A DNA stretch of 64,000 nucleotides from Marsupella aquatica (GCA_973895155.1 OZ316891.1:21773068-21837067); one strand, 5' to 3'. Positions 18,553-47,286 are shown, numbered from the stretch's first letter. Translations and numbers: made by a program. The notes: a model not told the origin generated them from the letters alone.

Positions 18553-18559
18553 ATTTATC

Positions 18560-19250: not shown

Positions 19251-20041
19251 ATTTTTAAGGTATTTTGGAGTTGTAGTGTTATTGGAGGCATACATGGGAG
19301 GTGGATCCATGGAAAAATTCATGGGGTACTTGGGGTTACTTCATTCAAATTGACAGACATAAAGATTTGACAATGTTTGATTATTTAGGAGTCACAAAAC
19401 TAGACATATATAATCCCCAAGCCCCTTCACTAGACAAGCTTCTAGGTATCTAACTACCTCAGTCTTCACCAACATTCTGTACAACATTCTTGGGGAAGAT
19501 CCTTTGCTTGCCTTTGGAACCGGTAGATCTCTAATGATTACTCTGTTCTGCTCTAGAGCCCACCTGACCACCATGTCTAATAACTCAAACGCAATCTTCT
19601 AGAGCGTGTTTGGTGAAAGGGTTGCCCAGGGAAGTCTTCGATCACTTGTTTGTATCTCCAACAAACATGCGCAGCTTGGCGTCCACTTCGCATGTCTTCA
19701 TCAATCCCATGGCTCTCATGCAGACCACTAAATTGGCGTCTTTAGTGAGACAGTGTGTCAAAGTCCTGCAAAAGTTTCAGAAAGATAGGGTGGATGTTTA
19801 AAAGCACAACAACGGCCCTCACATCCGAAAAAAACTTACACAGCATATGATGTTGAACAGGATTTTTATATATGTCACGTAATGCGGCTGATTGAACTAT
19901 GTATTTACTATGTTTGAGTCTTCAGCAACGTGTAATTTGCCACTTAATCTGCTCCTGGTTGGGCACGCATGGAACTTCTACCTGGTTTTCCTGAATATAT
20001 ATAAAATGGCCGGGCAGATCATGAAACCCCAAGACCATTAT

Positions 20042-20110
20042 AACCCCAATTTAAGGAAAACCAAACTTTGGAAATTCCGAAAATAACTAAATATTATTAT
20101 TTTAATAAAA
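20042..20110 (+). repeat. Putative left TIR of the giant Sola-like element, preceded by TTAT (20038-20041)
   Basis: AACCCCAATTTAAGGAA...AATTCC...CTAAATATTAT..TTAAT aligns over ~70 bp with 39957-40028. Confidence 0.7.
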
Positions 20111-20309
20111 AAGGGGCGACATGACGCGTGGCTGCGCGTGAAACCCTGAAAATGACTGCAACGTCACATTTTAACCAATCCAACTTGACGGGACCAAGAG
20201 ACATGCTCACGCGAATAATAGTAATAGAGAAATAAATCTTTGAGATCCTTTATATATGATAATCAGTATATAAGGAGTTTACAAATGGTTTCTAGAACGA
20301 CAATACAAA

Positions 20310-21067
20310 TTAATTTGATCTCATGCCGACTATTATTTTGGAAGCGTCCAAAATTGGGCGTCTGTTAAATTGCTCTACTAGATATCTATCTCCATGCCTC
20401 AAAATCACAGGGTCTTCCCATAGAGTATGATTATAATCATAATCTCTAAAAATATATTTAACTGACCAATTAGGATAATCTCTTCCATTGGCAATGACAA
20501 GCGGCTCACAAGAGTTTGCTAGCTTGCTAAGATACGGAATCAGCAAGTTAATCAGGAAACTGTCGTCGACCGACCCAAAATATTTGGGCGGAAATAATGA
20601 TCCAACAACAGGATCTAAACAAGCATGAAATGCATCGGATTCGATAAGCATTATATTTTGCTACAGATATGCCTTCGTATAAATTCCAACCTTCTCAAAA
20701 CACTTCAAAAATATCCGCTTATTTGATGTCACCCCATCGCATAAGTAACAATGAGACTGATCCCAAATATACTTAAATGAGGCCATTTCCATCGCAGTAA
20801 AAATAGATGCTAAAATTTGATCTAAAAGGTTCTTCCCAAGAGAGGACCAGATCCCTACATCGAAATTCTCAAAACAAAATCTCAAGAATTCATGAAGATG
20901 AGGCCTTGGAAAAACGTATATATTCCCATCTGAATTCCAGTTGAGACCGCCATCAGTCGGGAATGCGGTGCAGTGTAATAGAGTATATGCTCCATGTCTA
21001 AAACTATGAGCCCAGGCATTTTCTTTGCTGCAATGAATCTCCTGTAGAGAAACACAAGAAGATGCAT
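20310..21067 (-). pseudogene. FCP1/NIF-like HAD phosphatase domain, unit 3 (frameshift and stop)
   Basis: LIVLDMEHIL, PRPHLHEFLRFCFENFDVGIWSS, IWDQSHC, DDSFLINLLIPYL; TAG at 20661-20663. Confidence 0.75.
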
Positions 21068-21127
21068 GAGCCCGTATGGATGTAGTCACGCGAATGGTCG
21101 CGTCACATATTACAGAGACAACATCCT

Positions 21128-21835
21128 CTACACTCTGGCCATTGATAAGTGACGTCTGTTGAAGTGCTTGATAAGAACTTGATTCGCATGTCTCTGCACG
21201 TACAGATTCTCCCATATATCCTCGTTCAGATCCCAATCTCGATGTAGATTTCTAATCGACCAGATGGGATAATCAAACTTGTTAGCAAACGCAAGACAAA
21301 GCCCTGAATTTGATAGCTTTTGTAAATATGGAATGAGGTCATCCCTCAAAAAGACATCATCCAACGATCATTGAAACGACTTAGCGAACAATAATCCGCA
21401 TACAGCTGTCTGGCATGTATGGGAAGGATAGGCATCAATTTGGATTATATTCTCTGGTTGATAATCTTGAAACATATCATGTAGTCTCTCGATAGATTTG
21501 AAGACAACAGTCTTATAATTTTTCTTCACATAACCAAGATTCCAACAATGATCCTACGTGAACACATATATCAACTGCGACAGGTCGGTGCTCGACAACA
21601 CTTCTGAAAGTATCTAATAAACCAGTTTATCATTGAGAATAGACCAGACCATCACATCAAAATGATCATAACAGAATTTTATAAGATCATGAAGATGCGG
21701 CTTCGGAACGACACATAGAGATCTGATACGAATTCCGGGTGTTGACTTGAGCTGAGGAGTATATTTTGAAACAGAGCACAGGAAGTTTGCCAGTCCTAAA
21801 ACCAGAAGTTGACGCGACCTGCTCCACTTAGACAC
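21128..21835 (-). pseudogene. FCP1/NIF-like HAD phosphatase domain, unit 2 (degenerate)
   Basis: LLVLGLANFL, PKPHLHDLIKFCYDHFDVMVWS, DDVFLRDDLIPYLQKL; internal stops. Confidence 0.7.
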
Positions 21836-21966
21836 CTATAAATGAACAATTCGATTCTCATATTATGCAATTGCAAACAACCACGCGATCGGGCGCGTCA
21901 CTCCCAAAATATAAAGTTCAATTTCAATCAATTTATAAATAATAATTGATAATAAACAATAAATGT

Positions 21967-22737
21967 TTACTTATTGGACTTATCCCGGGCTTCTATAGCA
22001 TGGTCTTTTTCGGCAGATAAGTATTTCATAAATTTGTCAAACTTTTCTAAATGGTCTTTATTCCCCTGATTACGAATGATCACATTTCTCCTCCAAAGAT
22101 TTGTCTTATCAATATAATCTTTCTCAAGATTTTCTTGAGAGAACGTTGGAATCCCATATCCACTAAGGAGCTCGCGGAATGTCAACTTGTCAATTGACAT
22201 GTCGCATAGATATGTATATAGTTTCTTTCTAAAAAATAGGTCATCATCGAGCCCAGAATATGCATCGGGATACAGCGATGAATAGAAGTCATTAAGGCTC
22301 GTCTTATATGCAGCATCATCGATAAGAATGACATTCTCGATGTTGTAATCTTTAATATTGGCGGCAATGTTGGAGAGACATTTGACAAATAAGGGGATGT
22401 CATTATTATTCTTCCCAATAAGTCGAGTTGATTCTTGTCCCCATATAAATTTAATACGTTTCAAAACTTCGGGTCGAAGTATCAGCCTTACACAAGATAG
22501 AATATTTCGTTTGAACATGCACGACCAGATCGCAATGTCGTATAGATCTACCACCTTCTCAAGAAATTCCATTAAATCAGGCCTTGGATAGATAACCTTG
22601 TGCATCTGTCTCACACCCCTTGACCGAATGGGCATCCCAGGGCTGATCTTCTCTGACCAGATAAGTACCCGATTCAGATCAAAAATTACAAGTCTCTTTT
22701 GAACCGGTGACTTCTTTGCCGATGGATTAGGCGCCAT
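21967..22737 (-). CDS. FCP1/NIF-like HAD phosphatase domain, unit 1 (terminal exon)
   Basis: RLVIFDLNRVL, PRPDLMEFL, DIAIWS, FIWGQE, ENVILIDDAAYK. Confidence 0.85.
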   Translation of the reverse strand: MAPNPSAKKSPVQKRLVIFDLNRVLIWSEKISPGMPIRSRGVRQMHKVIYPRPDLMEFLEKVVDLYDIAIWSCMFKRNILSCVRLILRPEVLKRIKFIWGQESTRLIGKNNNDIPLFVKCLSNIAANIKDYNIENVILIDDAAYKTSLNDFYSSLYPDAYSGLDDDLFFRKKLYTYLCDMSIDKLTFRELLSGYGIPTFSQENLEKDYIDKTNLWRRNVIIRNQGNKDHLEKFDKFMKYLSAEKDHAIEARDKSNK

Positions 22738-22958
22738 CCGTACCTGTGATTTTTGTGCCGCAGGGTTTGGAGAACGTACTAGAACGGTCTATTTGTTTCC
22801 CGCCTCCGGACGATCACCGGACTTCCGGACTGGTGCCTTCGATACTCGATCAGGGGGTTTCGGGATAGGCTTCTGTAAAACATTAAGAAATGAAAATAAG
22901 TTTATAACGTGAACGGTCGCATGACTACAAAGGAAGACACTAAAATGAAGTGTATTAC

Positions 22959-23748
22959 CTGTACAAGACGGTTGTTCAGTGCTGGAATTCCGCCGGAAAT
23001 GTCAATCATAGCAGCACGGATCCCGGTAACTAGGTTACTTGCGGATGTTGGCTTGCGGAAGTCCATGTCAAATAACGACAAGACTATCTCCCTACGAAAT
23101 TTCTCAATTTGATCCAAGGAAAAATTAATTCTGTTTCCTTGACACAAGCACTTGGCGTATCTCAAGATAAACACACCACAACTGTGGCCGTCACTCTGGT
23201 GAGGAATATCATTCCGATATATCCGTTCCCAACCTGAGAGATCCAAGTTGACACCAGTTCTCCAGCCAATTTTGTCGGCGTAGTACTTCCCAACAATATC
23301 TAGCACCCCAGGATTTTGTTGATTATGAACTAGAGAATCTAGGTACCCGAGCCGTTTCTCCTTCGGATACACAACTACCAATGACCAATGTTCTTTCACA
23401 GCATTGTGTACTGAAAAGACCAGTTTGTCGTATTCACTGATTTTTAGCGGAAACTCCTTTGTCCAAGCTGCTCTCTCCTCATCGAAAATGGTAGGATCCA
23501 TGGAGAGAAGCTCAAAATGGTGTGTTTGGAAGAATTTGACAAGGTCTGACTTTCCAACTCTATCGAGAATCAGTTTGAGAAAACTCAAATAAGCGTTAAT
23601 TATATCATCGGTGAGCAACTCGCGCGGTCTTAGACACATCATATGTTTCCTCTTGATCGAGTGTTGTAAGAACTTGGTCAATAGCTCTTCCATATCCTTA
23701 GAAGGATCAAGGCATTGATCTATTCGACTAGCCAAATTTTCAAAAAAC
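22959..23748 (-). CDS. Ulp1/peptidase C48 (SUMO protease) exon
   Basis: LTDDIINAYL, EHWSLVVV (His), YLDSL (Asp), HQSDGHSCGVF (Gln/Cys): the catalytic triad is intact. Confidence 0.9.
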
Positions 23749-24559
23749 TGTAAAAAACAGAGATTTCAGTACGCCTTCAAATAACGTACTGAGGTTGTAG
23801 CCTAAGGGTTCTACCTCAAAAAACAGAAACAATAACAAATCAATAATAAAATAATGACGTCTATAATAGAAACTTTAAGCTTATAGCTTGCGAATGACCT
23901 TTGGATTGGGTGGATCCGGCCTTTTTGCAGCTGATCTCTTGGGTGCCTCAATCGCAACAACATCCTTCAGCCCTCCTCGAGACCGCAGTGATCGCTCCAC
24001 CGGACCAGTTTGCGAAGGTTGGAGCGATGAGGCGGGAAGACCTTCAAATGGTTGTGGCATTTGATTCAAATATTCCACAATCTGGGAATCCGATTCCAAA
24101 ATATCCGGTGCCACAATTTCTGCGCGAGTGACCTGTGCAATATATCAGGGTCAAGACCACGAACCCGGTCGTGTCAAGTCAGCTGTTAGTATCTTAACGA
24201 CTTGAGCCGAGTCTGGTGCCAAAGACGTTCCCAGGTCTTGCACTCGATTCTCAAAAAAGCGGACATTATTGATGATTGTCTCCATTCTGGATGTGCAGTG
24301 GTAGTCTTCTCCTCGGTAATCAAAAGACCCTTCCAATATTGCAAAGCAAGGACTGCCTGGACTCGGAGCTGCTCCGGTGAATATTTATTCCAATCATCCA
24401 ATGAGACCGTACTTAAGGGTGGATCGTTAAATTCAAACTCCGGGCGAAGAAAATAGTCTAATATTTTCTTCTTAACTGCAACTGAGGGTGAAGAAGGCTC
24501 CTTCAAATTTAGCTTTATTTTTGGTAGATGTTGTGCCTCAGGAATAAGCGAAAGATCCT

Positions 24560-25205
24560 TAGCCCTCTCGGCCTCCTTCCTCGCTGCCTCCAGTCTTGCG
24601 GCTTCTTCTCTCTCCAGTCTTGCGGAATTGACCTTTTCCGCCTCCAACTTCTCCGCCTCCACCCTCTTCGGTCTTGCGGTCTCGTCCGCCATCCTCTCGG
24701 CCAGCAGCCTCTCAGCCGCCACACTCTCCGCCTTGGCCCTATTTGCCTCTGTCACTAAAAGGACTCTCGTAGCCTCCGCTTTCTCAGCCTGGGCTTTCTT
24801 CGCCTCCGCTTTCTCAGCCTCGGCTTTCTCAGCCTCGGCTTTCTTTGCCTGGGCTTTCTCAGCCTGGGCTTTCTCAGCCTGGGCTTTCTCAGCCTGGGCT
24901 TTCTCAGCCTCGGCATTCTCAGCCTCGGCTTTCTCCTTCTTCTTTGCGGCAGTTGCTTTTCTAGCTACCGCCTTTTTCTTCTTAGCCTCCTTCTTTTGAA
25001 GCTCCTCTTGTCGGGCCGCCTCTTGTCGGGCCGCCTCTTGTCGGGATGCCTCCTCTTGTCGGGCCGCCTCCTGCCGGGCCTCCTCCTGTCGGGCCGCCTC
25101 CTCCTGCCGGGCCGCCTCTTTTTTTTGAAGCTCCTCTTGCCGGGCCGCCTCCTGCCGGGCCTCCTCCAGCCGGGCCTCCTCCTCCTACCGGGCCGCCTCC
25201 TCTCG
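24560..25205 (-). repeat. Coding low-complexity repeats (AEKAQ/AEKAE 15-mers; EEAARQ units)
   Basis: ttctcagcctgggct and cctcctgccgggccg repeats. Confidence 0.85.
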
Positions 25206-28200
25206 GTCCACCTCATGTCGAGGCTCATGTGTGGCCTCTTCATCAGAGTCTCAGCGTCCTCAGAACCCTCCATCTCCTCGTCCTCTTCATCAGCATCCTC
25301 AGCGTCCTTCATCTCCTCTCCGTCACTCTCTTCATCTCCTCTATTATCGGAATCTCCGACGTCGTTCTGCGTATCGGTCATCCACTCTAGATCTTGGTCA
25401 TTGACATCCCCATCCGCGTCACCTTCCGTGTCACCTTCCCCCTCACCATCCGCATCACCATTGCTCCCTGCATCCTCAACATTGAAGCCGCAGTCGACTT
25501 GATCTTAATAAAATCAGATCATTTGATAAGAATGACTCACGCGCATATTCGCGTGAAAAGAAATGTTAAGAATGTCCACGCGCATGTTCGCATGATGCAA
25601 TAAAAAGTAAGAGGTTTCAAAAGTAACCTATCTTGGATTGGCCCACTAGGGTACTCCGTTGGTCGAATGTACAATCGATCGGAATCTTCAGAGAGTGCAT
25701 ACTCTTGCAATAATTGATTACAAATATTATCAGGGATATGTTGTTCGTGGAGGACATCCAAAACATCAGCCCTGAGAGCAGTTACGGATGGACGGTACTT
25801 CATTAATTTATCTATACATTTTTCTATACTAGCCCGTACTGGGTCAATCAATGACAGCGTTGTATCAATTGTCACCGTGGTGTGTTGCAAGAAACAAGAC
25901 AACTCCCTATGCATTGCCACAAGGCAGTAATATTTTACATTGGATCCAGCATCCTGTAAAAAAAGCCAAAATTAGTTCACAATATTAATTGAGAATATAA
26001 TAATCTAAATAATCTTAAAATCGAAACCCCAAAATATAAATCTCAAAACTTACCATCAAGCACTGGATCAAGTTCGTTCCCTCACCGAAGCATAGAGCCC
26101 ATTCCCCACATTGGACGAATTGACTAACAATACTTTCAAAGAATGGAAGTATCTTTTCTGGGGAAGGTGTCGTGAACTCGCCGCTCTCTTCAAGATTGGC
26201 TATCTTCTCAATCCGATATTTGGAGACCAATTGGAACTCGAGGGCTTGTGGATCGCCCATTGTGTTGAAGGCCAAGCTGTGAAAAGCGTAGGTTACAATA
26301 AGCTTCTTCTCCTTCGGCCGCTTCTAAATATAATGGCTATCGACAGCAACGTAGTGTGTGTACTTCCCTAATTCCCATTTGATTAAGTAAGACTCAATGG
26401 GAGAGGCTACAATAATAACCACATGGTGTGGTTTTGCCCCTATCTCGCTAGTAGCACGAAATAACCCCTCATAGAATGAGCAATTTGGCGCACGCAAATC
26501 TCCCATTGATGAGGGATCAAAATAAATCAAGCTCGCAAGGTTCTTGTCTTCACGTATGATACAATCCGCAAACCCAGCATTTTGTATATCCTACAGGGAT
26601 CGCAATTTCAGCCTCTCACCAACCGGCCGCACTAGTTGGTTTCCTTGACTATCAACTGATTTATGTATTCCTTCCACCAACCTGTAGAATATCGGGTCGA
26701 TCTCTTTCAACAAATTATCATTATTAATATTTACATTTAAGCACTTCTTCAGATAACCACTCAACGCATCTCTCAACTGCTTCAACACCATCTTGTCGAG
26801 CTTAAAGCGATCAATCATTCCTTTGACCCGCAATTTCCGCGCTGAATCTGTCAGACTTTTCAGCTCCGTCCGGGTGGATGTATTCCCGTTGAGTTTACTC
26901 AATAATAAAATCTCAAACTCAACTTTCGTCTTCTTCTTTATACATAATTGCTCCAAACTCATGCTAGTCGTTGACAACATTGGAGCCTCAGAGGACTTCC
27001 TCGCCTTCCCAGATTTCACTTTGATGCTTTGGTTTTTGAGTATAGACAGTCTTCCGCTCAACATATATTCTGTTGCCTTTCGAAGAACCGAGTTTGAGCA
27101 CCCTTGACAAGAATGGAACGTCTTCTTCAGAAAGATGATAAGCACATGGATTATCCGCAATTTTGACGGCGTCCCTCTGTAAAATTCCGTTGTAAATTAC
27201 AAGCTCTCCTGTCCTTGATAGTTTGTAGACCTCCATCCACTTCTTGAATGTTTTGTCCTCCATGTAAAGAGAAACAGAGCCAATTCTCCAAATTTCATCA
27301 TTTCGTTCATCCCCATTTGAGCCCATGGGCAAACAAAACTCTAGCTCTCATAAATACCTGAAAAACAATGGAAACATGACAATTCTAAGATTGACGCGAC
27401 CGTTCGCATGAGAAAAATTCTAAGCTTGACGCGACCGTTCGCGTGACAAAAGTTTAAATGATAATGTGATCGAAGAGGATTATTTATATACCTTCCAATT
27501 TGGATGATGATAATGTGATCCAGGCCGCCCAAATGAGTTCCAGATATTACGACACTGTTGTACAATGGTGAGAAACTGTCCTTCCATTGATGTTTGATGA
27601 CAGTGGTTCAGAGCTTTCGATAATCCCATCAAATGAACATTATTGTCGTTGTTGAGCGTTGCCCAAAACATTACAGCTTCTACAGTACCGCAAGCGTCTC
27701 GTACAACTTGGCTGACTTTGTCGTCCTCTTTCAATCAGCAATTTGTACGCCATTATTGTGTGCTGGCCTCCGAGTATCCAAAAATGACTGGTCATAATGT
27801 CCTCCTCCTTTGGCGCCGAATCGTAGGGCGCCCCATTGTAGTCAAGATCTCTGTCGGCCTCCGACTGAACCCACTTCACAGGGACTAAAAAGCAGCATCG
27901 CTTTTCAAACTTTATAGTCGAATGAGAGAGGAGTGAATTCTTTAGCCTACCTGTGTAATCATGATTCCACTCTCGGCACTTGATATGGTCCGGTGCAAGA
28001 TGACAACGTGATGTCTCAACAAAAAATGACTTGCTGTTAAATATATTCACAGCACTATATTCTTTGAGGAAAGAATCGAATAGAGCCCCGACATTCGCTG
28101 AGGTAATTACTTTCGGAAGATTCTTCGCCGAGTATACTTTAACCTTGGTCACTGGCGGGGCCTTTCCCAAGCGAAATCCCTGGTTGAAAGGAACTCTCTA

Positions 28201-28749
28201 GAACTCAAGTACGTCAATAATGTATTGACAAATCAAATCTCCCGTTGATCCCTCTGGATCGGAAGGATATCCCACACTAGTAACCTTTTCCAAGGCGTGC
28301 CTTGCATCTAGAAGATCATCGATTTTGGACTGATTGAAGGTTACGTATTGCGTTTGATCCAAACAAATGCTTATTTTGTCCTCTTGCTGGTCGTCGCTAA
28401 CTAGCAGAACCAATCCCTCTGTACACTCTTTAACTTTCATGTTCTTCTCAAAGAAACACCCAAGAATTTGTGATCTCTCCAAAACTGTAGCTTTATCATT
28501 TTTTGCCACCACAAGACGGACAACCTCATTGCGAACAACTATTCCAAAATCGGATATCTCAGTCGATTCAAAGAGATGGATACTCTTTGTCTCCGTTGTT
28601 CTCTCTCTGATTGACTTTCCTCGATATGCTTTAGATGAATCTCTTTTCCGCTTTGAAGTTCCGGTAGGATCCATTCTGAAATAGACAAATATTGAAAGTT
28701 AAACGTTTATTATAAAATACTAACACGCGCATGGTCGCGTCGTGCCGAA

Positions 28750-29220
28750 TTACATTTTAGGAACGTTTATCTTGACCCAATCTTCTCGCTCATCTTCATC
28801 TAACCAAAACCAAAGGTTCCTAAATGTGTCAAGTTTAGATCCTTCAAATCCACCCAGAATGTCCAGTGGCGGGAGAGTTCTGATGGATTCTGTAAATCTG
28901 AATGCTACACTCCGTGAAGGCAAATGCCTTTGAAGCGATTCATATCCTGGTCTATCAGTGAAGTCGTAAGCTACCAAGGTGACCGTCGCCCAAGTACTAC
29001 TATAAGTAACTATGTGGCACCACTCCTTACTAACTGTTCGAATGGCGATCAAGTCCATGACCCGATTTTTAATCGCATTATCCGAAGACAGTGGAAAAAC
29101 TCTTTGACTAATGGCCAAATATATTTCTCGACAATATCGTCCGGAAGACCGGGTATCAGGTCTTCAGCTTGACTCCATATCATGTTTTGGTTCATAACCT
29201 TTGCACGTGCAATGCGCTCC
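28750..29220 (-). pseudogene. F-box-like ORF 1 (frameshifted)
   Basis: IPGLPDDIVEKYIWP upstream, then DLIAIRTVSKEWCHIV. Confidence 0.55.
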
Positions 29221-29468: not shown

Positions 29469-29870
29469 TCAAATAACTCGACAGATTGAGTCAAACTCCA
29501 ACTCGTCAGTTTCAGGTATGTAGTAAAGTGCTTCATTTGCGTCATCGACAATCCGGTTTGCTTGTTTGAGGATAGCCCATAACCTTGTATTTGTAACTAA
29601 AAAGTTCCACTTCTTGCTACAAGCTCCAAGCTGAATAAGGTCTCGGACCCTATCGATAACCAAATCGTTATCGGGGTGTCGATATCGACGCAATCCTTCA
29701 ATTGAAATAAAGTGTTTGTAGAGTATTGGCCAAATGTTTGAAATGACCAAAACATCTGGTATTCCTCCAATGAGACTAGAGGAGGTTTCATCCAGCGTAT
29801 CCCATATTGTTTTCTGTTTCCTTTCATGAGATGAAAGGAAATCTCGAGCCTCATTCAAAAGTTGGCTCAT
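29469..29870 (-). CDS. F-box-like ORF 2
   Basis: LIGGIPDVLVISNIWPIL...IQLGACSKKWNFLV. Confidence 0.6.
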   Translation of the reverse strand: MSQLLNEARDFLSSHERKQKTIWDTLDETSSSLIGGIPDVLVISNIWPILYKHFISIEGLRRYRHPDNDLVIDRVRDLIQLGACSKKWNFLVTNTRLWAILKQANRIVDDANEALYYIPETDELEFDSICRVI

Positions 29871-29935
29871 CCTGCTTTTATCATATCACAAAACATTGTT
29901 AGAAGACATATGATGCGCTTGGTCACATAAGTTAA

Positions 29936-30487
29936 CTAGAATTCCTTAAAAGCGTAGATGTCACCCTCAAGGTATCCAACTTTGTGGCATCTGACTATAA
30001 ATTTCCATTTTTCAAGAGGGTGAAGAGCATCGTAAGTCTTCGTGAAGAGTTCCCTAAGATCTCTGGACATTGACCCCATGAATTTAATTCTTGGGTATTT
30101 CTGGAAGAAACTTTGAACTGTCGATGAGAGAGACTCATTTCCGATCGGTTTAGTAGGATTTCCTGGGAAAGCCAAATCTAATAAACTCAACTTGATTACA
30201 CCCAGAAGATAGGTATTCCCAACAAGGTGGCGCCATCTGCGACACACCGAAGATAGTCCTACAAACTCATCCAATTCCTTTATTGAGAAATTTCTTGCAT
30301 TAGCCAAGGAATTAAAAGACTCCTTGATCCGAGGCCATATCAATTCTGCGACAATGAAATTTGGAAGTCTAGGTAGTAGTATTTCAACAAATACAGAATA
30401 TACCGCCAGTAGACCATCTTGGCTTCTGTCCAAAACGTTAAATATTGGGCATAGATATCTGAAGCTCTCCAGACCAGGTTTGCCCAT
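29936..30487 (-). CDS. F-box-like ORF 3
   Basis: LLPRLPNFIVAELIWPRI...LSSVCRRWRHLV. Confidence 0.65.
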   Translation of the reverse strand: MGKPGLESFRYLCPIFNVLDRSQDGLLAVYSVFVEILLPRLPNFIVAELIWPRIKESFNSLANARNFSIKELDEFVGLSSVCRRWRHLVGNTYLLGVIKLSLLDLAFPGNPTKPIGNESLSSTVQSFFQKYPRIKFMGSMSRDLRELFTKTYDALHPLEKWKFIVRCHKVGYLEGDIYAFKEF

Positions 30488-30628
30488 GACTCTTTTCAGC
30501 CAAATGATATATCCCAGAGATTATTTTCACGCGACTGGTCGCGTCTACAAATCAGAATGTATAAACAATTCTTTGAGAGACTGTGATTTTGTCGGGTCAC
30601 AACGTGACAAATCATAAATGTTGCTTCG

Positions 30629-31353
30629 TCCTCTAACAGAACCAGTCAATGAGAGAGCTACCTCAGACGCGATTGGTCGCGTCAACTGATCCTAAATGGA
30701 AGAGTACCTCCTCTAACAAAACCAGTCAATGAGAGATCTACCTCAGACGCGACTGGTCGCGTTAACTGATCCTAAATGAAACCTTACCTCCTCTAACAAA
30801 ACCAGTCAATGAGAGATCTACCTCAAACGTGACTAGTCGCGTCAACTGGTCCTAAAAGGAACCTTACCTTCTCTAACAAAACCAGTCAATGAGAGAGCTA
30901 CCTTAGATGCGACTGGTCGCATCAACTGAACCTAAACAACTATATTCACTGAACCTTCCTTGTGGAGATTTGGATATGGTACGCGCTCAGTAAATCTATC
31001 TAGTTTCCTTCTCACATGCGACTGGTCGCGTCAACTGATCCTAAAAGGAACCTTACCTCCTCTAACAGAACCAGTCAATGAGAGAGCTACCTCAGACGCG
31101 ACTGGTCACGTCAACTGAACCTAAACAACTATATCCACTTAACCTTCCTAGTGGAGATTTGGATATGGTATGCGCTCAGTAAATCTATCCTGTTTCCTTC
31201 TCACACGCGATTGGTCGCGTCAACTGGTCCTAAAAGGAACCTTACCTCCTCTAACAGAACCAGTCAATGAGAGAGCTACCTCAGACGCGACTGGTCACGT
31301 CAACTGATCCTAAATGGAACCTGACAATCTTTTCACGCGACTGGTCGCGTCAA
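30629..31353. repeat. Tandem array (80-bp unit, ~190-bp higher-order unit), each unit carrying ACGCGACTGGTCGCGT
   Basis: Motif at 30667, 30747, 30827, 30907, ~31016, ~31096, ~31205, ~31285 and ~31335. Confidence 0.9.
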
Positions 31354-37034: not shown

Positions 37035-38595
37035 ACGTGATGTATGTTTGTTTTGTGTGATGTCCCATGTATATCGATCTACTTGTTTGAATTTTGTATG
37101 TTGTACTACATCCAGTACGGTCCCTTCAACAAAAATAACTTAGCGTACACAGTAATATATTGTTCATGCATGAATGCTACTACATTCCTTCCATCCTTCA
37201 CCCCAAGACATTTTCAATGTGACAAACAAATCTGCTGCACGTTCCATTTTGGCCACTAGTCATGCGGACACCCACATCGCCAACAAGGAAAACTTTAGAA
37301 CGTATTGTGAGGATCTGGTTTTCCACATACAAGACCAACAAGGAGATCTACAAATACCTTAGTGCAGACTTCAAGTCTAACATAAAAATAAAGGAGAAGT
37401 GCAGATTGTATATTAGGAGTAGAATGCATCATGAACTTTGTGCCTCTAAAATTTGTGTGTCCCAAAACATTGCCTAAACATGAGATGTCTTGGCTAGAGA
37501 CCTTTCTCTTTGAAGTGGTGAAGAATAGAGTCTTGATTTATGTTTTGTTTGAGAGTTCATCGCATTAATGTGTGCACAATCCTGATCTCCAATTGCACGT
37601 ACTTCAAATGCAGGTTCCCTAAGTACTACTGCAAAAAGCGGGGCAAAAAGAGGTGATGATGACTTCAAAAAAATGAAGGTACAGGCAGATGAATATGAGG
37701 TTTTGGCCATTAAGTATGGACAGTCATACCCCAAGTATTCGGTGGAACTTTGTGCTTATGCCTTCAAGCCCACTTCTGGCAGAATTGCAAGTGAGAGACA
37801 TAGATAAATTGGTCAAATATAGGGAGCAGTGTAGTGGGGTAGTGGTTGGTCGTGGAATACCAGAGAGCATCCACCTTATTAAGAAGGTAAGGTGGTGGAA
37901 GCTGAAGTTCATGGAGGCCATGTTTGATGGTGATAAGTCAAAGTTTGCATATTTCTGGGTGCCATTGATGACACCAGTAAAGGGTCTCAGATGGTACATA
38001 CAGTTTGGGAACTTAAAGGCAATAAGTATGCACCGACCTTATCTGAAGTACATCTTGAATGTTGAGTACATTGTAATTTGAAAGCTACTTATGGAATACG
38101 TTTGAGGCATGAGTGGGGCATATCTAGGGTACAAATGGGGTACAAATGAGAATAGGAGTGGGATACGAATGGTGCGGGTGGGGTAATAGGGGTACAAGGG
38201 GGTAAAAGGTTATTTGTGGCCTACTTGAAATTTATACTTTCCCAATATCTTATATTGCATTGTGGACCCTAATTATATTGTCATGTATAATTTCCTGCAG
38301 GGCATGTTAAGTTTTGTTCCAAGGGCATATTGTTCCATGAGCGCCAATCTGGCTTGTAAATTGTGCCATGGGTATTCAGGACTTTCTCCCCAGGGTTTTG
38401 CCATCTTAGGGAAGGCTTCCAACAATGTGGCCTCTAACCTCTGTCCTACCGACAAGCAATAGCTGCTTTCAGAAGGGAAGAAACCTTTGAGATCCCCATC
38501 TGCATCAACGGACCCGAAAGATGATGCAAGACAAGGAGGGGAGGTAGAGTTGTTGTCACCACTCTTGCATAGCCACTTGTTTTCACAGCAGGCAC

Positions 38596-38887
38596 CCTGG
38601 GGTCCTCACTTCTTTTCTTCCTACCCATTATGCATGAATAAGTATAGGGTTTTTTATTGGGTTTAGTGAAATACTTTTAAATTTTTGTTGAAGAACATTA
38701 AGGTTATTTTAATCCAATTTTGAGAATTCTAAGAATCATAGGGTTTTTTAAAATCAAAATTGGGAATATTCTTAGAATATTCCATTAAGTTAGGGGTAAA
38801 AAAACTTTATTGACTTAACTTTTAGGTGTTTATTCCCCCAAAACTTTGCGCGTGATATGGGACACCCCTTGGATTGAGGCCCTCGAG
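38596..38887. mobile_element. MITE related to family M (divergent subfamily)
   Basis: Perfect 8-bp TSD GCAGGCAC (38588-38595 / 38888-38895). Ends CCTGGGGTCCTCA / TGAGGCCCTCGAG. Internal aagtatagggt..tttattgg block shared with family M. Confidence 0.8.
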
Positions 38888-39321
38888 GCAGGCACAAGAA
38901 ATTCAAGTAGATGAGGAGGTTGCACATAACAATGGAGATGAGGATAGTCAAAAACAATTGTCGACGTCGACTATCAACTTGCATACATGTTGATTGCTTA
39001 AGTCCGTCCACCCAGATTTACATTCAATCTGATGAGGATGATGAAAGTTTATTTGAGCTCTAATGATAAAACAAAACCACAAGTGGTAAGCAACTACCGT
39101 CATGCTGCACTCTTGTATTATATTTTATAAATGTATTGCACAGTGACAATACTAATTCAATCAATTTATTCAATCAGTTTATGGTATGTACATATTTCGC
39201 AGGTAAGAGGCAAAAACTTGACTGCAATATTGTAGACCAAAACACCCTTTCTTGTACAAGGTACAGATCTGAACGGGTAATATTTCATTCTGTAGGTGGA
39301 TATAATGTGATTAGGTTCCCT

Positions 39322-39603
39322 CTTGGGGGTTTCACTTCCACAAAAATGGCAAGTTACCACATGCGACGAAGTATAGGGTCATTTTATTGGTTCAAAGGGA
39401 AGACTTAAAAATTTTCTAAGAAAAACACAGGGTTTTTTAAATCAAGTTTTGATACTATCAGAACATTAGGGTCCTTATAACCAAGATTTCAAAATATTCT
39501 AACCTTATTGGGGTTGATTTTTTATTTTTTTTACATTTTAGGAAGTCTAAGGCCTAAAACGTCGCAAGTGATGGGGAGGCATCCATATAGTGAGACCCCC
39601 GAG
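39322..39603. mobile_element. MITE family M, copy 2
   Basis: cttgggggtttcac...gtgagacccccgag; degenerate TSD GGTTCCCT / GGTTCCTC. Confidence 0.85.
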
Positions 39604-39956
39604 GGTTCCTCTCGGATATAATGTGAAAAGTTTCTTAGAGCTACTTTTGAGACGATTGATGATTTGCGATGTGGTAGGTAAAGATTGAGAAAGACAAAGA
39701 ACAAGGGGGAGTCCTCGGAAGCATTGGTAACCTCAATTCACCCCTGACAAGAACACGACAAGGCAAGGTTCCAAATCCAGGCAAAGAAAATGTACCTTCA
39801 TTTAGGGTAATTTCAACAAAAGTACATGAAGATGCACGACAACGGTTGTTGACTAGCAAGAACATGGTATGATCACACATTCCATCCATTCAAGATGTTT
39901 TTTGTTTAAAGTAGTAGCAATTCATTTGTGTATAATGAAGTGGAGCTAGAACATAA

Positions 39957-40028
39957 AACCCCAATTTAAGGAATACTGAAGTATTAGATTAATTCCAATT
40001 TTATCTAAATATTATAAGTTAATGAATG
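39957..40028 (+). repeat. Putative right TIR of the Sola-like element (now flipped), preceded by ATAA (reverse complement of TTAT)
   Basis: 17-bp identity plus extended similarity to 20042-20110; lies just downstream of the transposase 3' end. Confidence 0.7.
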
Positions 40029-40173
40029 ATCAACCTCTTTAACATTTGGTGGAATAGTCAAAAACTTCAAATGTTTTGTTGCAAGATCTTTATAACAATG
40101 CATCACTAAATGATATCAAGTACCTCTTGATCCATGCACAAATCCTTAATTAAACTGTCATTCATTGTTTCAA

Positions 40174-40702
40174 TTGTCTATTTAATTACTATAGGGTTGA
40201 ATACAAAAAAGATTGACCACCCTTTACAACAATTAATAGGATTGTTGTATATTACAATGTCTACTGGACATTCATTTGAATGTCAATAATATCATGCCTT
40301 AATATCACCAAACTAACGCCCCACTGTCTAACTAATATTATATCTTAAATAAACTAACCAACTAACTAACTTGTCTATTTAATTACTATAGGGTTGAATA
40401 CAAAAAAAGATTGAAACGCACCAGGGTGCGTGACCTACATTAATCATGGTATCACCCTTTAATTAGTTAGTTTCTATTGCTTTGACTCAATCAGGCATGG
40501 AACCATATAAAATCAGAAATCATTGAAAGTTGAGTTCACTTGAAGGTGTAACTATAATTATTACTTATTAATAGGATTGTTGTATATTACAATGTCTACT
40601 GGAAATTCATTTGAATGTCAATAATATCATGCCTTAATATCACCAAACTAAGGCCCCACTAACTAATATTATATCTTAAATAAACTAACCAACTAACTAA
40701 CT
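40174..40702. repeat. Subterminal direct duplication (~40174-40371 and ~40371-40702, with an insertion)
   Basis: ttgtctatttaattactatagggttgaatac and ttaataggattgttgtatattacaatgtc... each occur twice. Confidence 0.8.
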
Positions 40703-40773
40703 TAGACGATAAGACTTGTCTAAACTTGAGTTCTCTGGCTACTACTATTCTGAGTTGCCTTTTAAACTGTATG

Positions 40774-43700
40774 CTAAACTACATGCTTCATTACTGTCTG
40801 GGATTTGTCACTTGCTATGCATGTCAAGAGATAGTCTCTTGCCTTGATAGCAACATTCTTTGGAATTCCTACCAGCCCTGTCACTGGTCCTTTGCGTGCT
40901 TTGAAACACCACAAGGCAGAGGAAACATCTATTGTCTCAGCTTCCTTGTATATTGGAGTTGGATCACGTTCCCATTTCTTATCCCAAGAATCTGCCCGCC
41001 GCTCTCTTGGCTGCCAGTCTGATTGACCACGTTGCTTCTTTGCCATAAATGGTCTAAACCACTCAACGCCACATACATGAGTAAGAAGGTTTTGTTCATT
41101 CACTGGTCCTTCTACCACATCTGTAACAACTAACCCCATATGGACGGGATAAACATCTAGGTCTGAGTCATCCGGCCGTACCAACACATAACAGCCCTTC
41201 ACAACATCAACCCTAGGGTTAAAACTCTCAGGAGGTTTATCTTTTGCTGGTCCCACATAATCCACTGTTGCCTCCAACTCACATGCCACATTTCGATGTT
41301 CTGGTGGAACGTGCTCTCCCTATATTGATAAAGGCCAAAACCCGTATTCCAAGTTGTGTGCACCTTCAGGTTCATATTGCACCTGCTCACCCTGTAGAGT
41401 ATCTACAATGTCATTCCAATAATTGATGAGAGTTGTCCAACGTCGCTTTGGTTCTTCCTCTTTTGTTCGCTTTAGAATAAACTCAAAGAATGACACATGC
41501 TTCTTCAACCCTGTCAGCACTTCAGGAACCCTAAATCATTGGTAGCCGTTTGGGCACCCCAATTGGGATGTGAGGAATTTTGTCATCTTTCCATGACCAC
41601 ATTTCAATACCTTCCTTGGGTAACCATCCCTGATCAGTTGACTTCATTTTGTATTGGAAGCATGGCATACTATCATGACGAACATAGAACCTAAACAGCC
41701 TGGGTTTTAAATGCCCCACCAATGCCTCAGGGCCCTTCAACATGAATGAAGCTAAGTAGTTTTTGAAATTTGCGACCTCGTGTAGAAAATGTGGGACTGC
41801 ATTGGGTGTCCTTGCTCTCATGAACAAGGACATTAACTCAGGCAATGAGTATGTGGGGTTATGCATCATAGACTCTGAAAATGGCCCGAACATACCGTCA
41901 ACGTCCTCATGAGTATGCCCAACCACCATAAAACCAAGATGAACCTCTTCAAACACCTCCCTTGCCGTCAACAATGACAAATAAGCCATCATATATCTGT
42001 TCTTGTTGTCTGAGGCACAATTATCCAGTTGTAGCTTCAATACTCGTGGAAGGGGCCTGAACTTTGGTGCCTCAGGTGCTGCATCACAATGTAACAATCT
42101 CAGAATGCTTTTAAACAAAACCCTAGTCAGACCCTAAACCCCAATTTAGGGTTTAGGGTTTAAACCCTATTAATGAAACCTTGGCTAGGAGGAGCAACAA
42201 CTACACAACGTAGAGTGTCAATGTGTGTGAGCTTATATTATTAAATAATAATAAATTAAAGGATTGTGAGTAGAGTACCTAGGCTTGAGATGTAGGCAAT
42301 GTCATCCTCAAATGCTCTAAGGACACTTGCCTCCAAGATATCTGCTCTCCAAAAAAGGAGGTCTTTAAAAAGACTTGTCGAGTGTGGCCCCTCCACAAGC
42401 TAGTGATTTGATCATTGGATTTGGGTTTTCCAACATCCTTAGTATTGAATCAATTGACCCAATAGTGATGTTGACATCACCTGGCCACACTCCAACATGA
42501 TATTGGGCTATGGCCTTGGGACCATGACCATGAGTAAGGATACCAGTGACAGTAATTGGGAACTTTTGGGCACCATCCACATGCTTAGGATTGAAGGGCA
42601 TTCTTGGGAGAGCTGTCTTTGAATGCTCGGGGATTTCACTTCCACAAAAATGGCATATCACGTGCAACGAAGTATAGGGTCATTTTATTGGTTTGAAGGG
42701 AAGACTTAAGAATTTCCTGAGAAGAACAATAGGGTCTTTTAAATCCAGTTTTGGGACTTATAAGAACACTAGGGTCTTTATAATCAATTTTTTGGAATTT
42801 TTTGAGAATATTCCAACTTTATAGGGGTCAATAAAATAAGTTTTTTTCTTACATTTTAGGGGGTCCGAGGCCTAAAAACGTCGCAGGTGATGGGGAGGCA
42901 TCCATATAGTGAGACCCCCAAGTTTGAATGATCCATCTTATCATGAATAAGGCATAACACTTCCTTTGGACGATGGATGGACTCATATCTCCAGGTATGA
43001 TAGCACATTCTTTGCTATGTGTGGTCTTGGCGATGTTCCTCCTCGTCACGCCTTAGGCCCTCTAACTCTTCCTTAGCTCCTGTAAGGTTTGCTTTCCGTT
43101 GAAGCAACTCACTACTGAAAAGTTGTTGCCCTTTTTGTGACATGAGAACTCCCTGAAATACATCTGATGTAGATGACTCAAGGTGGGTTGGGAAATTGGA
43201 GGAAGACCAGCCTCCTAGTTGACAACATTAACCCTGTTTCTAATATTCTCCCAAGTAAGATTTGTTGGCAATTCCCTCAAAACCATCCTTGTATTATCTG
43301 CCATGGTTCTCAACTTGGCTGGATGATGATCAGCTGCCTCCTCAATAATCTCTTTCATTGACATGAACACTTGAGATACTTTCTCGGACATACGCCTTTT
43401 TCCAGCATTACCATGGGTACCTATGTTCATTCCAGCCATCACAGTCTTCTTCAAGGCATAAAATTGAGTCTTTCCTCTTGAATGAATGATTCTCCATGCC
43501 TCCAAGCACAATACTTTGCCCTCCACTGCTAGAATCCTTTCTCCAGTACCCAAGTGTATTGTATTTTTAATAGCCTTGATTTCCTCCTCCTTGCGCTCCA
43601 CAAAAGATTTTGACCACCACTTTTGCCTAATTGCCATAGCCAAGTTGCGGTCCAAATATTGACAACAATGTTCACTACAACAGTCCTTAGTGTTTATCAA

Positions 43701-44486
43701 CAACACATCTTGACGTGCCAAAGATGTGTCTCTTCTAGATGTCCGGGAAGATGAACTCTTTCTTTTCCTACTTTTATGGACGTAGGACCGCTTGCCACTT
43801 GTTGGAGATGTGTTCCCTCCCATAGCTTGCCTGATGTTGTGGAAAGACAACAAGTTTCCATCCTTGGCAATGAGTTGGTCCATCGACCAAGCTTTTAAGC
43901 AATCTCTATGCTTCAAATGATCTATGGTAGCTCCCTCGACAAAATCGTTGATCAGAATTCCCACATGTGTATTCCCAAGGGTGACATCCCCAAGCTTCAC
44001 TATAGGATCTAGAACATGTATAGTTGCCATTGCAAAAATCAACTTGTTCTCATCCACCACCTTTACAGGCATGCCCATCCACAAGGCCTTTGGTAAAACT
44101 ACTTCCACACCAGACCGACTCTCATTATGGTTGTTCCCATCATAATTTTGATTGACTGGATCTTGATCATCACCAACAGTGCCAAACACATCCTCCGATT
44201 CCATGGGAGCTCAAAAAAGCTGATTCCTTTCCCATACAAGGTAACCCCCAATCATGTCCTTCAAAAGTTTGCCATCTTCGCATAGAATGGTCTCGTCAAA
44301 AACTTCCTCCAATAGAAGAAGAACTCTGTCCGCCCCAAGAGGAACATAATTGTGACAAACCCTGGAAGGATCAAGACTTATCACGCGACCTTTTCCAACC
44401 TGTTTCTCACGTATGCCTATAATAACTTGTCCGCCTTCCCTGATCCAGACTGTCAATGTCACCATAATAATTATGATCCTGCACAT
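40774..44486 (-). pseudogene. Sola1-like DDD transposase with two N-terminal Tnp1/En-Spm-like domains; disrupted by stops, frameshifts and a MITE
   Basis: DCCSEHCC, VLCLEAWRII, HGNAG, LIHDKMDHSKT (D1), LKLQLDNCASDNKNRY (D2), FMVVGHTHEDVDGMF (D3); intron ~42280-42120. Confidence 0.75.
42626..42922. mobile_element. MITE family M, copy 3, inserted in the transposase
   Basis: Perfect 8-bp TSD TTTGAATG (42618-42625 / 42923-42930). Removing it restores LIHDKMDHSKTALPRMP. Confidence 0.95.
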
Positions 44487-45493
44487 CAGAGAATATCATT
44501 GTAAGCGTACAGTCATGTCACGTCCATCAGCTTCACTACACTATCCTGTCACGTCGATCAATAAGCAGAATGTAGTCAATGCACTGCGCTGCACGCGATT
44601 GGTCGCGTGACCCTAGAGGTACCACACATACCGGCAACAAACTATGCATGGTCCGTCAATCATTTCAAGTGAATGAGAACGACCACAATCGATTAGGATC
44701 AATCATTTCACATCCACTAAGAACAAATGAGTGGACAGTCAGTAACAACTGAGGACAATAATGCTAATAAGCGCCAATAAAACGTTCGTGAACTGCATTG
44801 TCCTGTCACGACCGTCAATAAGTAAGCAGAATGTAGTCAATGCACTGCCCTGCACGCGACTAGTCGCGTGACCTTAGTCAGAGGGTGTAGGGATAACAGG
44901 GTCTACGACGTAGAAGCTAGAAGGCTAGGCCCAAACTCTAGCTCATACTTGGTACTTCATAAGTAAGATATGATTGCGCGTGAGACAAGAAGATACAATT
45001 ACGGATCTGAAGGCATCACACATACCGGTAACAGATTATGCATGGTTCGTCAGTCATTTCAAGTGAATGAGAACGACTACAATCGATTACGAACAATCAT
45101 TTCAACTCCACTCAGAAAAAATGAGTGGACAATACTAGTTTACCAATGAGTGGACACCGGACAGTCAGTAACTACCAACCCTCATAAGAAATCTCAGTAC
45201 TTCACTAGCAATCAGTATTCCCGGGGCGGTCACCAAATATGAAATTAAAGCCATAATTAGAGGACAACTAAACTTCCCGCCAATTCTAATACGCGCCAGT
45301 CAAACGCGCACTCTCTTCTAGAAACCACTATGTACAATGACTAGTGAAGACTAAACAATATAAAGCATTGAGATGATCCCTACTGCTCATTCCCCCACGC
45401 ATTCCACTTTCTGGCTACTGGATAATCTATTCGCACATCAGCTCTCTCATTTCCAATTCTTAGTCTCGGTCCGCATCTCTTGTTTGAAGGGCG

Positions 45494-46036
45494 ATGACTA
45501 CTCTGCTAAGCTCGAAGAATGAGGATGTTCCGACGGATGATTCAGAAGGTTCGACGTATCAAATTTGTGGTACTCCTTACAGAATGTGTCAGCGATATAA
45601 TATAATGTTTACGGTGACTAAATCGGGTCAAATGTTTTGTGAGAGACGACATTATTCACCATATTTGTCGATGGAAGATCAGATGGAGACCAATCCAACA
45701 GAGATGACTACAAAGATGGCACCAGGGGAGAAGTTAAAGGGCAAAGCCCTCGTGGAATCTGTTTCAAGGGGGGAGAAGTTGAAGGCCAAAGCATGTGTTG
45801 AATCCATTTCGGGGGAAGCAGCAGCAGACGCTAAGACAGTCAAGAAGGAGGCCAAGAAAGTGGACGCACCGAAGAAAAGGCAATTAGAGATGAATGAAGA
45901 TTCTGATTTGTATTACAGAAAGAACAAGCCGAGAAAATCTATGGACGTTAGGACTTGGGCAAAGGAAGAATTTCTGGATTCAAGGGAATCCACACCAGAC
46001 ACCGATGAGTGGATGCCTTCATCTTGGAATGATTGA
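45494..46036 (+). CDS. Hypothetical 180-aa protein, divergent from the transposase
   Basis: Open ATG..TGA; Cys/His-containing N-terminal half and charged C-terminal half; no recognised domain. Confidence 0.45.
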   Translation: MTTLLSSKNEDVPTDDSEGSTYQICGTPYRMCQRYNIMFTVTKSGQMFCERRHYSPYLSMEDQMETNPTEMTTKMAPGEKLKGKALVESVSRGEKLKAKACVESISGEAAADAKTVKKEAKKVDAPKKRQLEMNEDSDLYYRKNKPRKSMDVRTWAKEEFLDSRESTPDTDEWMPSSWND

Positions 46037-46281
46037 CTCGATCAAAGTCAACAATATTTTGAGTAGTCGAAGATTAGAACTACAGATTCAAGAGTAGTTC
46101 AAGTTAGAACTTGTTATAGATACTGTGTAGCTTAATTTCATCCCGTGAAAAATAGTGTTCAAAAGACCAGGTCAATTAAATTCCTGGATAGTGCTAGCGG
46201 ATATGGATTCCACATCCGAAGTCCTTCGGGATCGATGTAACCATTTTTGCAATCAAGGAAAAATCATCCACAAGATTCCTC

Positions 46282-47286
46282 TGACCTCTAAGACATTTTC
46301 GCGACCGGGCGCGTGATGAAACGAAGACGTTGGTTTTAAAATATATTTCTGGCCAATTCGCTAGGCTATCGACTACAATAAACAATATCAAAAAGACCTG
46401 AAATAAATTGGTTCACGCAACTGTGTGCGTGATGAACTACATGTGTAACCAAAAAAACAGGTCATCCTACTAACAAGTTGAGATCAGGCAGATCTGAGAA
46501 ATAAAGGGCGATTACGTCTAAGAGTGCAGAGCTTTTGTTAACCTCTAAAACATTAACGCAACCGGGCGCGTGATGAAATGAAGACCTCGGTTTTAAAATA
46601 GATTTCTGGCCAATTCGCTAGGTAGTCGACTACAATAAACAATATCAAAAAGACCTGAGATAAATTGGTTCACGCGACTGAGCGCGTGATGAACTACATG
46701 TGTAACCAAAAAAACAGGTCATCCTACTAACAAGTTGAGATCAGGCAGATCTGAGAAATAAATGGCGATTACGTCTAAGAGTGCAGAGCTTTCGCTGACC
46801 TCTAAAACATTAACGCAACCGGGCGTGTGATGAAACGAAGACCTCAGTTTTAAAATAGATTTCTGGCCAATTTGCTAGGCAGTCGACTACAATAAACAAT
46901 ATCAAAAAGACCTGAGATAAATTGGTTCACGCGACTGTGTGCGTGATGAACTACATGTGTAACAAAAAAACAGGTCATCCTACTAATAAGTTGAGATCAG
47001 GAAGATCTGAGAAATAAAGGGCGATTACGTCTAAGAGTGCAAAACTTTCGCTGACCTCTAAAACATTAACGCGATTGGGCGCGTGATGAAACGCAGACCT
47101 TGGTTTTAAAATAGATTGCTGGCCAATTCGCTAGGCTGTCGACTACAATAAACAATATCAAAAGACACGAGATAAATTGGTTCACGCGACTATGCGCATG
47201 ACGAACTACATGTGTAACCAAAAAAATAGGTCATCCTACTAACAAGTTAAGATCAGAAAGATCTGAGAAATAAAGGGTGATTATGT
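46282..47286. repeat. 257-bp tandem repeat, ~3.9 units, two ACGCG-N6-CGCGT-type motifs per unit; cut by the LTR
   Basis: acctctaa.acatt recurs near 46283, 46541, 46798 and 47054. Confidence 0.9.

Follow-up and report, generated by a model that had tools for sequence, protein, structure and literature searches.

A probable inactivated Sola-like DNA transposon of at least 21 kb in Marsupella aquatica, with one arm likely flipped and an accessory gene predicted to bind private palindromes

Here we describe a candidate giant Sola-like DNA transposon located in a window of DNA from Marsupella aquatica (GCA_973895155.1, OZ316891.1:21773068-21837067). The window is the whole stretch of 64,000 nucleotides that was analysed, and all positions are counted from its first letter. 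It consists of repeat-dense eukaryotic DNA containing Gypsy and CACTA elements as well as spliced genes. The candidate element lies in two arms, a cargo arm with a long accessory gene and a transposase arm, between which a truncated Gypsy element and a piece of host flank are found.

The transposase arm carries, on the minus strand, a spliced DUF7869 (Sola-like) DDD transposase gene (40777-44495). The domain match to DUF7869, which we take to be the Sola transposase, has an E-value of 1e-36 in Pfam. Three DDD-type motifs reported by an earlier sequence-only reading of the same DNA were located on the minus strand, HDKMD at approximately 42945, QLDNC at approximately 42031 and GHTHEDVD at approximately 41920; their aspartates are conserved in homologs, the triad being assigned by motif. 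Read from 44495 to 40777, the gene aligns near full length to proteins P0008 and P0010, and a longer-protein search returned 17 matches among 411 candidates, all of them DUF7869. This copy is dead, because stops, a frameshift and a 297-bp miniature inverted-repeat transposable element (MITE) interrupt the gene; the MITE (42626-42922) has an 8-bp duplication and is inserted directly after the HDKMD motif.

On the cargo arm the genes are also read from the minus strand. From the centre outward, their order is three weak F-box-like open reading frames (ORFs), an exon of about 400 amino acids, an intron, an exon of about 440 amino acids, an acidic repeat linker, an Ulp1 domain and three NIF units, and the exons of the accessory gene appear to make one long spliced protein. 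The Ulp1/SUMO-protease domain (22905-23765; Ulp1/Peptidase_C48, E=9e-18) has kept its His, Asp and Gln-Cys residues. It is followed by a NIF/FCP1-like unit at 21970-22788 (E=3e-10) and by two broken units at 20313-21835 (E=1e-9 and 0.08), each of the latter with a palindrome ahead of it (21088 and 21883). Active FCP1/NIF phosphatases are defined by the motif DxDx(T/V); DLNRV stands in its place in the best unit, which is likely a pseudophosphatase, and the motif is absent from the other two. On the other side of Ulp1 lie the region coding for the acidic linker with its 15-bp repeats (24189-25504) and a region (26039-27349) coding for a helical part and a predicted beta-class DNA amino-methyltransferase-like fold, which lacks PPY in motif IV, is frameshifted in this copy and is 45% identical to P0063. 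The first coding exon (27489-28673) is weakly ParB-like, with palindromes upstream (28725) and in the next intron (27394 and 27429). No match to its ParB-like domain was found in Pfam, NCBIfam or the PDB, and the label is a weak one, drawn from a PHROG ParB-like match (E=0.089 over 23 residues), an Atlas lead to DUF3723 (0.92, with low recognition) and published precedent. The F-box-like ORFs (28753-29163, 29472-29885 and 29939-30520) have E-values of 0.004-0.02, below the Pfam cut-offs, and are weakly alike among themselves. The sequence-only reading had named a ParB-like/Ulp1/FCP1 gene, two additional FCP1 units and three F-box-like ORFs; the Ulp1 domain and all of the NIF/FCP1 units stand, while Pfam does not confirm the ParB-like part and the three ORFs, although present, keep a weak label. 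A tandem 80/189-bp array with 10 palindromes follows at 30529-31350. At 32424-33017, within the multi-copy arm, there is also a low-complexity hexamer array rich in Ser, Glu, Arg and Ala that is open in several frames.

Two features had been overlooked by that reading: the methyltransferase-fold domain between the ParB-like part and Ulp1, and a second, paralogous accessory gene at 10.6-17 kb. The paralogous gene (10636-17031, plus strand) comprises a ParB-like part, a methylase fold, a linker of 93-bp repeats and one NIF unit, without Ulp1, and its identity to the main cargo gene is about 30-54% over the aligned blocks. Its second exon matched 11 clusters among 1.84 billion proteins, and the two named homologs of the cargo protein come from the liverwort Calypogeia fissa, in keeping with a non-seed land plant as the likely source. 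By sequence, no match to the methylase-like domain was obtained in Pfam, PHROGs, NCBIfam or the PDB. The fold was predicted on the second exon of the paralog (12628-13389) from a 17-row alignment that held the element's copy, with a predicted local distance difference test score (pLDDT) of 78; the single sequence gave a pLDDT of 35. Foldseek returned CcrM as the best match (E=1e-6), and in the VIA structure comparison (Z=13.3, root-mean-square deviation 3.6, 177 aligned) the top ten rows were all beta-class DNA amino-methyltransferases; the structural matches include CcrM, M.MboIIA, M.BceJIV and PvuII. The element's own copy of the domain aligns with that of the paralog and with P0063. Active DNA amino-methyltransferases need a catalytic motif IV of the form (D/N/S)PP(Y/F/W). 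Its aspartate is kept in 14 of the 15 aligned rows and PP[YFW] in 0 of the 15, and a motif-I-like F-G/S-x-G/S turn is present in all 13 rows that reach that position. The cargo gene is thus predicted by the model to hold a beta-class DNA amino-methyltransferase fold with a degenerate catalytic motif. For the paralogous gene, the window yielded no partner transposase and no second end flanked by a matching duplication. Near it, at 18172-18228, lies a sequence resembling the element's terminal inverted repeat (TIR) that can be read in either orientation.

The ends of the element were recognised by a 17-mer, AACCCCAATTTAAGGAA, of which the window contains exactly two copies, one at 20042 and the other at 39957, each on the plus strand; 0 of 100 shuffles yielded two copies. 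The two ends are alike at about 73% over some 59 columns, and the likeness dies away by about column 70 (counted by eye). The related segments of about 70 bp noticed at these positions by the sequence-only reading are therefore real, as are their outer flanks, TTAT at 20038-20041 and ATAA at 39953-39956, the latter being TTAT on the minus strand. Reversing 37037-47284 reproduced what had been proposed for a flip of 37-47 kb: the ends at 20042 and 39957 become terminal inverted repeats bounded by a 4-bp target-site duplication (TSD), TTAT, and cargo and transposase come to lie on opposite strands, consistent with the divergent transcription that had been claimed. The 5' TIR is imperfect and about 60 bp long (20042-20100, plus strand), and the 3' TIR (39957-40015, plus strand) begins 1,577 bp past the transposase core. 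The reconstructed element spans 24,323 bp, or 21,161 bp without the LTR (long terminal repeat) remnant that it contains. This size is a minimum, because the two arms no longer meet, and an LTR remnant and a deletion are found where they would join. Of the proposed mobile unit of 13.8 + 7.3 kb, the structure is backed by several independent lines, and the size serves as a lower bound. A AACCCCAATTT-like string at 42137 was considered as an element end and rejected, as it sits in a telomere-like intron tract. Such TAAACCC/TTTAGGG tracts are found at 42120-42170, in a transposase intron, and at 2900-2931, and they resemble the first 12 bp of the TIR.

Support for the flip was also obtained from the Gypsy sequences. 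The segment 33875-37036 (minus strand), which lies within the element and consists of a 5' LTR and gag, is an inverted, truncated copy of the neighbouring Gypsy element at 47285-55457 (plus strand), with 95.5% identity to 47285-50431. In a three-way LTR alignment of 932 columns, private sites numbered 33 in the LTR at 47289, 13 in the inverted LTR and 17 in the 3' LTR, and the inverted LTR showed 96.5% identity to the 3' LTR versus 94.1% for the nominal 5' LTR. From the private-site counts, the inverted LTR is the closer sister of the 3' LTR. All 33 private sites precede a 96-bp identical tract (47994-48089, corresponding to 36309-36214), beyond which the counts are 0, 4 and 4; with a 19-bp tandem tract excluded, private sites were 18 versus 4 (p=0.004). 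Such a distribution is characteristic of crossing over between LTRs in opposite orientation; an assembly error in that tract would produce it equally. The inversion breakpoints likely fall at 36214-36309 on the left and at 47994-48089 on the right, and 37037-39952, which holds MITE copies and no palindrome, would be host flank brought inside by the inversion. Since the LTR swap was detected without using the transposon ends, it is an independent line of evidence for the flip, and the inversion said to hide the element gains support from the swapped inner LTRs with their switch point in the 96-bp tract. The transposase arm was likely flipped by recombination between the two inverted Gypsy LTRs.

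The two arms are further linked by a 16-bp palindrome, ACGCGACYRGTCGCGT, present at 26 sites, all within 21088-47199, against an expectation of 0.05. Seventeen sites lie in the cargo arm and nine in the transposase arm, with none in the flank and LTR between the arms and none elsewhere in the window, so that the shared palindrome pointed out by the sequence-only reading links the arms independently of the element ends. In the transposase arm, two palindromes lie upstream of the transposase gene (44593-44869) and seven in a tandem 257-bp array (46281-47283) that is cut by the LTR at 47285. The motif-rich centre that had been suggested stands as far as these palindrome arrays go, but the motif reaches beyond the centre, being found in introns and ahead of each gene unit as well. 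The paralogous gene has a different palindrome, RAACCATGGTTY, with 12 sites, all in 9550-17566 (1.1 expected); the sites precede the gene and the NIF unit and also lie in the first intron, an arrangement that mirrors the main element. A third palindrome, TTTGGTGGCCACCAAA, has 14 sites in a related locus, L025, all of them between its ends; it is present in 22 of the 36 long related loci introduced below and absent from the window, and ACGCGACYRGTCGCGT is absent from those loci. From these distributions, three lineages with three private palindromes can be recognised. A tandem 147/157-bp array just outside the 5' end (18638-19239) contains neither ACGCGACYRGTCGCGT nor RAACCATGGTTY.

Related transposases were sought in a metagenome scan, from which the best 80 of 470 confirmed stretches were taken; they were grouped into 62 clusters, and 36 of these clusters have 9 kb or more. 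Neighbouring genes such as PPR, Copia and Gypsy point to plant DNA. Of the 36 non-redundant long loci (32 of which have at least 2.5 kb downstream), 23 have an end of the type AACACATATTTAA at a distance of 0.8-4.2 kb beyond the transposase core, a range that includes the 1,577 bp of the window. Relatives thus show the same end type as the element, whose ends are exact over 17 bp and alike at about 73% over about 60 bp. When the window was scored against five related 5' ends, 20042 ranked first, with 163 sites past the first filter. Target-site duplications of 4 bp were read at L025 (675-11947, 11.3 kb; ATAT) and at L021 (56-14768, 14.7 kb; TCAT), beside TTAT in the flipped window. L025 holds two NIF remnants in its 5' arm, on the strand opposite the transposase. 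The insertion site of L031 is that of L025 apart from a single mismatch; at 4.6 kb (7782-12423) compared with 11.3 kb, L031 has shed the NIF cargo through an internal deletion.

For copy number, sequencing runs were compared (four of six runs, from two studies; contigs only, covering the cargo arm and flanks). In run X1 the cargo contigs had a depth of 398-492 versus 8.6 for an identical flank contig, and in X2 one cargo contig had 992 versus 86; depth was even along 20-33.9 kb in the four runs. This indicates that the cargo arm is multi-copy, in the order of tens of copies rather than an exact number. Most family contigs are free of the indels that the window copy has at 27131-27731 and 29240. 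One contig of X4 matches 39722-39956, ending exactly with the right copy of the duplication, and then runs on for 21 letters that have no match, consistent with an empty version of this flank. Where the run contigs differ from the window, the changes are mostly T>C and A>G, which fits C-to-T decay of the window copy from cytosine methylation.

Taken together, the locus probably represents a multi-copy DUF7869 (Sola-like) DNA transposon, at least 21 kb long, in a copy that has been inactivated; one of its arms was likely flipped via Gypsy LTRs, and the product of its accessory gene is predicted to bind the palindromes of the element. The structural part, a split giant element, is held with high confidence. 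Cut-and-paste mobility is deduced from the DDD motifs, the ends and the duplications, and the element would have inserted at TTAT in this manner. One Gypsy would then have landed in the 257-bp array of the element and a sister Gypsy, in opposite orientation, 2.9 kb past the 3' end; a crossover within the 96-bp identical tract would have inverted about 11.7 kb, and a deletion would have taken the rest of the inner Gypsy together with a stretch of the element. As to function, the long spliced protein (ParB-like part, methyltransferase fold, acidic linker, Ulp1 and NIF units) may dock on the private 16-bp palindrome of its family. Binding of its own palindrome is suggested by the position and exclusivity of the sites and by the ParB precedent; the methylase fold and the NIF units are likely to be binding modules, because they lack the PPY and DxDxT motifs, and the intact Ulp1 could remove SUMO locally on the element. 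The purpose that we favour is sequence-specific self-regulation or anti-silencing, by analogy with the VANC/KIU proteins of VANDAL elements; palindrome binding combined with anti-silencing is given about an even chance.

Several observations weigh against this interpretation. No continuous sequence joins the cargo arm to the transposase arm, and the depth figures, which are not copy numbers, cover the cargo arm. An nhmmer profile of the related 5' ends ranks 20042 first but only with E=0.5, and the corresponding 3'-end profile of the related loci misses 39957. Among the related loci, two of four independent two-ended sites (L015 and L044) have no matching 4-bp duplication. TTAT is unlike AWWT, a statistical preference reported for insect Sola1 that one of the three duplications fits (ATAT) and the other two, TTAT and TCAT, do not. 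The TSD of the Gypsy itself is unreadable, its 3' LTR being cut by a CACTA element that starts at 55458. On the side of the cargo, the ParB-like label is weak, the fold was modelled on the paralog and not on the element's own frameshifted copy, NIF cargo was found in one cluster only among the 80 related loci, and ParB-like, methylase-fold, Ulp1 and F-box domains were found in none of the 80. This last result, although obtained on decayed loci of 32-56% identity that are cut at 10 kb, counts against a universal cargo.

Two other explanations concern the structure. The inversion could be an assembly error, a path switch inside the two inverted 3.1-kb Gypsy repeats that would leave the element itself real. 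Such a switch within the 96-bp tract would produce the observed LTR swap, and the contigs compared are short and cannot span the Gypsy repeats. However, the repeats are only 95.5% identical and contain no identical run above 153 bp, and long accurate reads usually resolve repeats of 95.5% identity, which makes an error of this kind rather improbable. Alternatively, the arms might be two separate insertions of the same family, the left half of one with cargo and the right half of another with transposase, that share TTAT by chance. In favour of this, insertions are nested in the region, copies of the family number in the tens, the arms are not joined by any molecule, and an AT-rich match of 4 bp would arise by chance in roughly 1 in 100 cases by estimate. 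Against this, the flip that creates the duplication is predicted independently by the LTR swap, each end type is single in the window, and the reconstructed size and layout agree with those of L025 and of Sola1-1_Ec32, a Sola element described below; of all the alternatives, chance pairing is considered the least probable.

Two more concern the accessory protein. It might mark its own element as a working N4-cytosine or N6-adenine methyltransferase, which is what PMC12477816 proposes for an Ectocarpus gene. The clear beta-class fold of the model, the near-constant aspartate of motif IV and the motif-I-like turn in all rows that reach it speak for activity, but PP[YFW] is missing from every row, and we regard an active enzyme as unlikely. 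The cargo could also be host sequence captured passively, in the manner of Pack-MULE (Mutator-like) elements, with no role in the life of the element. Weak and short F-box-like ORFs, NIF units without catalytic motifs and the scarcity of such cargo in most related loci would be expected in that case. Yet the accessory gene is kept at 23-53% identity over 11 clusters and two paralogs, every lineage has its own palindrome at matching positions, and most family copies are free of the frameshifts of this copy, all of which renders passive capture very improbable.

Other features of the window include a 182-aa ORF at 45488-46033 (plus strand), divergent from the transposase, which has no Pfam match above noise and no match in the related loci; it bears a short Cys/His motif. 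A high-copy MITE, about 300 bp in length and bounded by short inverted ends with a duplication of 8 bp, is present at 18287-18555, 38640-38826, 39322-39603 and 42626-42922, and may be hAT-like judging by the length of the duplication. The CACTA/EnSpm element (55458-64000) is inserted in the 3' LTR of the Gypsy and contains a Transposase_21 domain (62007-63932, E=2e-70).

Sola elements are established as cut-and-paste transposons with a DDD transposase and a 4-bp TSD (PMC10741241), and in the portions of text available, large Sola elements, some above 15 kb, are described as present in moss, including Physcomitrella Sola1 (PMC10741241, PMC9033089); they share the DDD transposase, the 4-bp TSD and the large size with the element reported here, and those portions give no cargo. 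The closest likeness is to Sola1-1_Ec32 of Ectocarpus, compared by its description in the accessible text of PMC12477816. That element is 21,549 bp long, with AACCG termini, a 282-bp TIR and a 4-bp TSD said to be biased to end in A, and carries on the opposite strand a gene for a 1104-aa protein with ParB and N4C/N6A methyltransferase domains; its best match is Sola1-1_PPa of moss. Common to both are termini starting with AACC, a length above 20 kb (at least 21,161 bp here), the 4-bp TSD, an accessory gene opposite the transposase (after the flip), nested insertions and, through the model of the paralog, a predicted N4C/N6A methyltransferase fold. It is very likely that the present element is a giant Sola-like element of the Sola1-1_Ec32 type. 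It differs from the brown algal one in its land-plant-type genome, a TIR of about 60 bp instead of 282 bp, the addition of Ulp1, three NIF units and three F-box-like ORFs, and the degenerate motif IV; palindrome arrays are not mentioned for Sola1-1_Ec32 in the same text. The sequence-only reading knew of no described Sola element with this cargo, which has to be narrowed, as Sola1-1_Ec32 has the ParB and methyltransferase gene and the Ulp1/NIF/F-box-like set is what is new. No land-plant Sola with this domain set was found in the literature covered, outside which lie Bao 2009, Iyer 2011, Repbase and the supplements of the bioRxiv preprints. A moss family combining ParB, methylase and FCP1 was likewise not found, either in the parts of PMC4738411 covered or by literature search, and PMC7466625 and PMC6431247 do not mention Sola. 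New, then, are a land-plant form with Ulp1, three NIF units, F-box-like ORFs and a degenerate methylase, and three lineages with different palindromes. The likely LTR-LTR inversion hides the 21-kb element from TIR-based annotation.

Likenesses outside the Sola superfamily are taken from the available parts of the sources cited. The accessory genes PAG2/PAG3 of Plavaka elements in red algae code for ParB-like and adenine-methylase domains, with tandem inverted repeats beside the ParB gene as proposed self-binding sites (bioRxiv 10.1101/2025.02.11.637652); these elements have an EnSpm/Plavaka transposase, with ParB fused to a 2-oxoglutarate (2OG) oxygenase and the methylase to SET, and Ulp1 and NIF are not mentioned in those parts. 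DUF3723, to which the nearest Atlas clusters of the first exon, made up of fungal proteins, belong as a weak lead, is a conserved cargo of giant fungal Starships (bioRxiv 10.1101/2021.12.13.472469), which use a tyrosine recombinase. Ginger and Mutator elements commonly carry Ulp1 (PMC2836005). In the VANDAL Mutator-like elements, the transposon-encoded accessory proteins VANC and Kaonashi (KIU), with an Ulp1 domain, recognise short family-specific motifs in the non-coding DNA of related copies, and anti-silencing has been shown (PMC13317346). Those elements belong to eudicots, are of the non-TIR Mutator kind and use a DNA-binding protein that is unrelated, whereas the element here has TIRs and a DUF7869 transposase, so that the likeness is one of analogy and anti-silencing is a conjecture for the Sola-like element. 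According to the Bostrychia preprint (bioRxiv 10.1101/2025.02.11.637652), no transposon group other than VANDAL is known to bind its own sequence and modify it, and for the algal ParB-methylase accessory genes the same has been proposed, not shown. The element described here adds Ulp1 and NIF domains to this design and extends it to land plants. The two paralogous accessory genes of the window, with different palindromes at matching positions, together with the third palindrome of L025, offer a ready swap system for specificity. We tentatively suggest that, in non-seed land plants, giant Sola elements are equipped with chromatin tools directed at themselves: a ParB-like protein with a catalytically degenerate methylase fold and its private 16-bp palindrome would diversify as matched pairs, like ParB/parS, and would deliver a SUMO protease and decoy C-terminal domain (CTD)-phosphatase domains to cognate copies. 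Next to VANC, plants would then possibly have a second sequence-specific anti-silencing system of independent origin.

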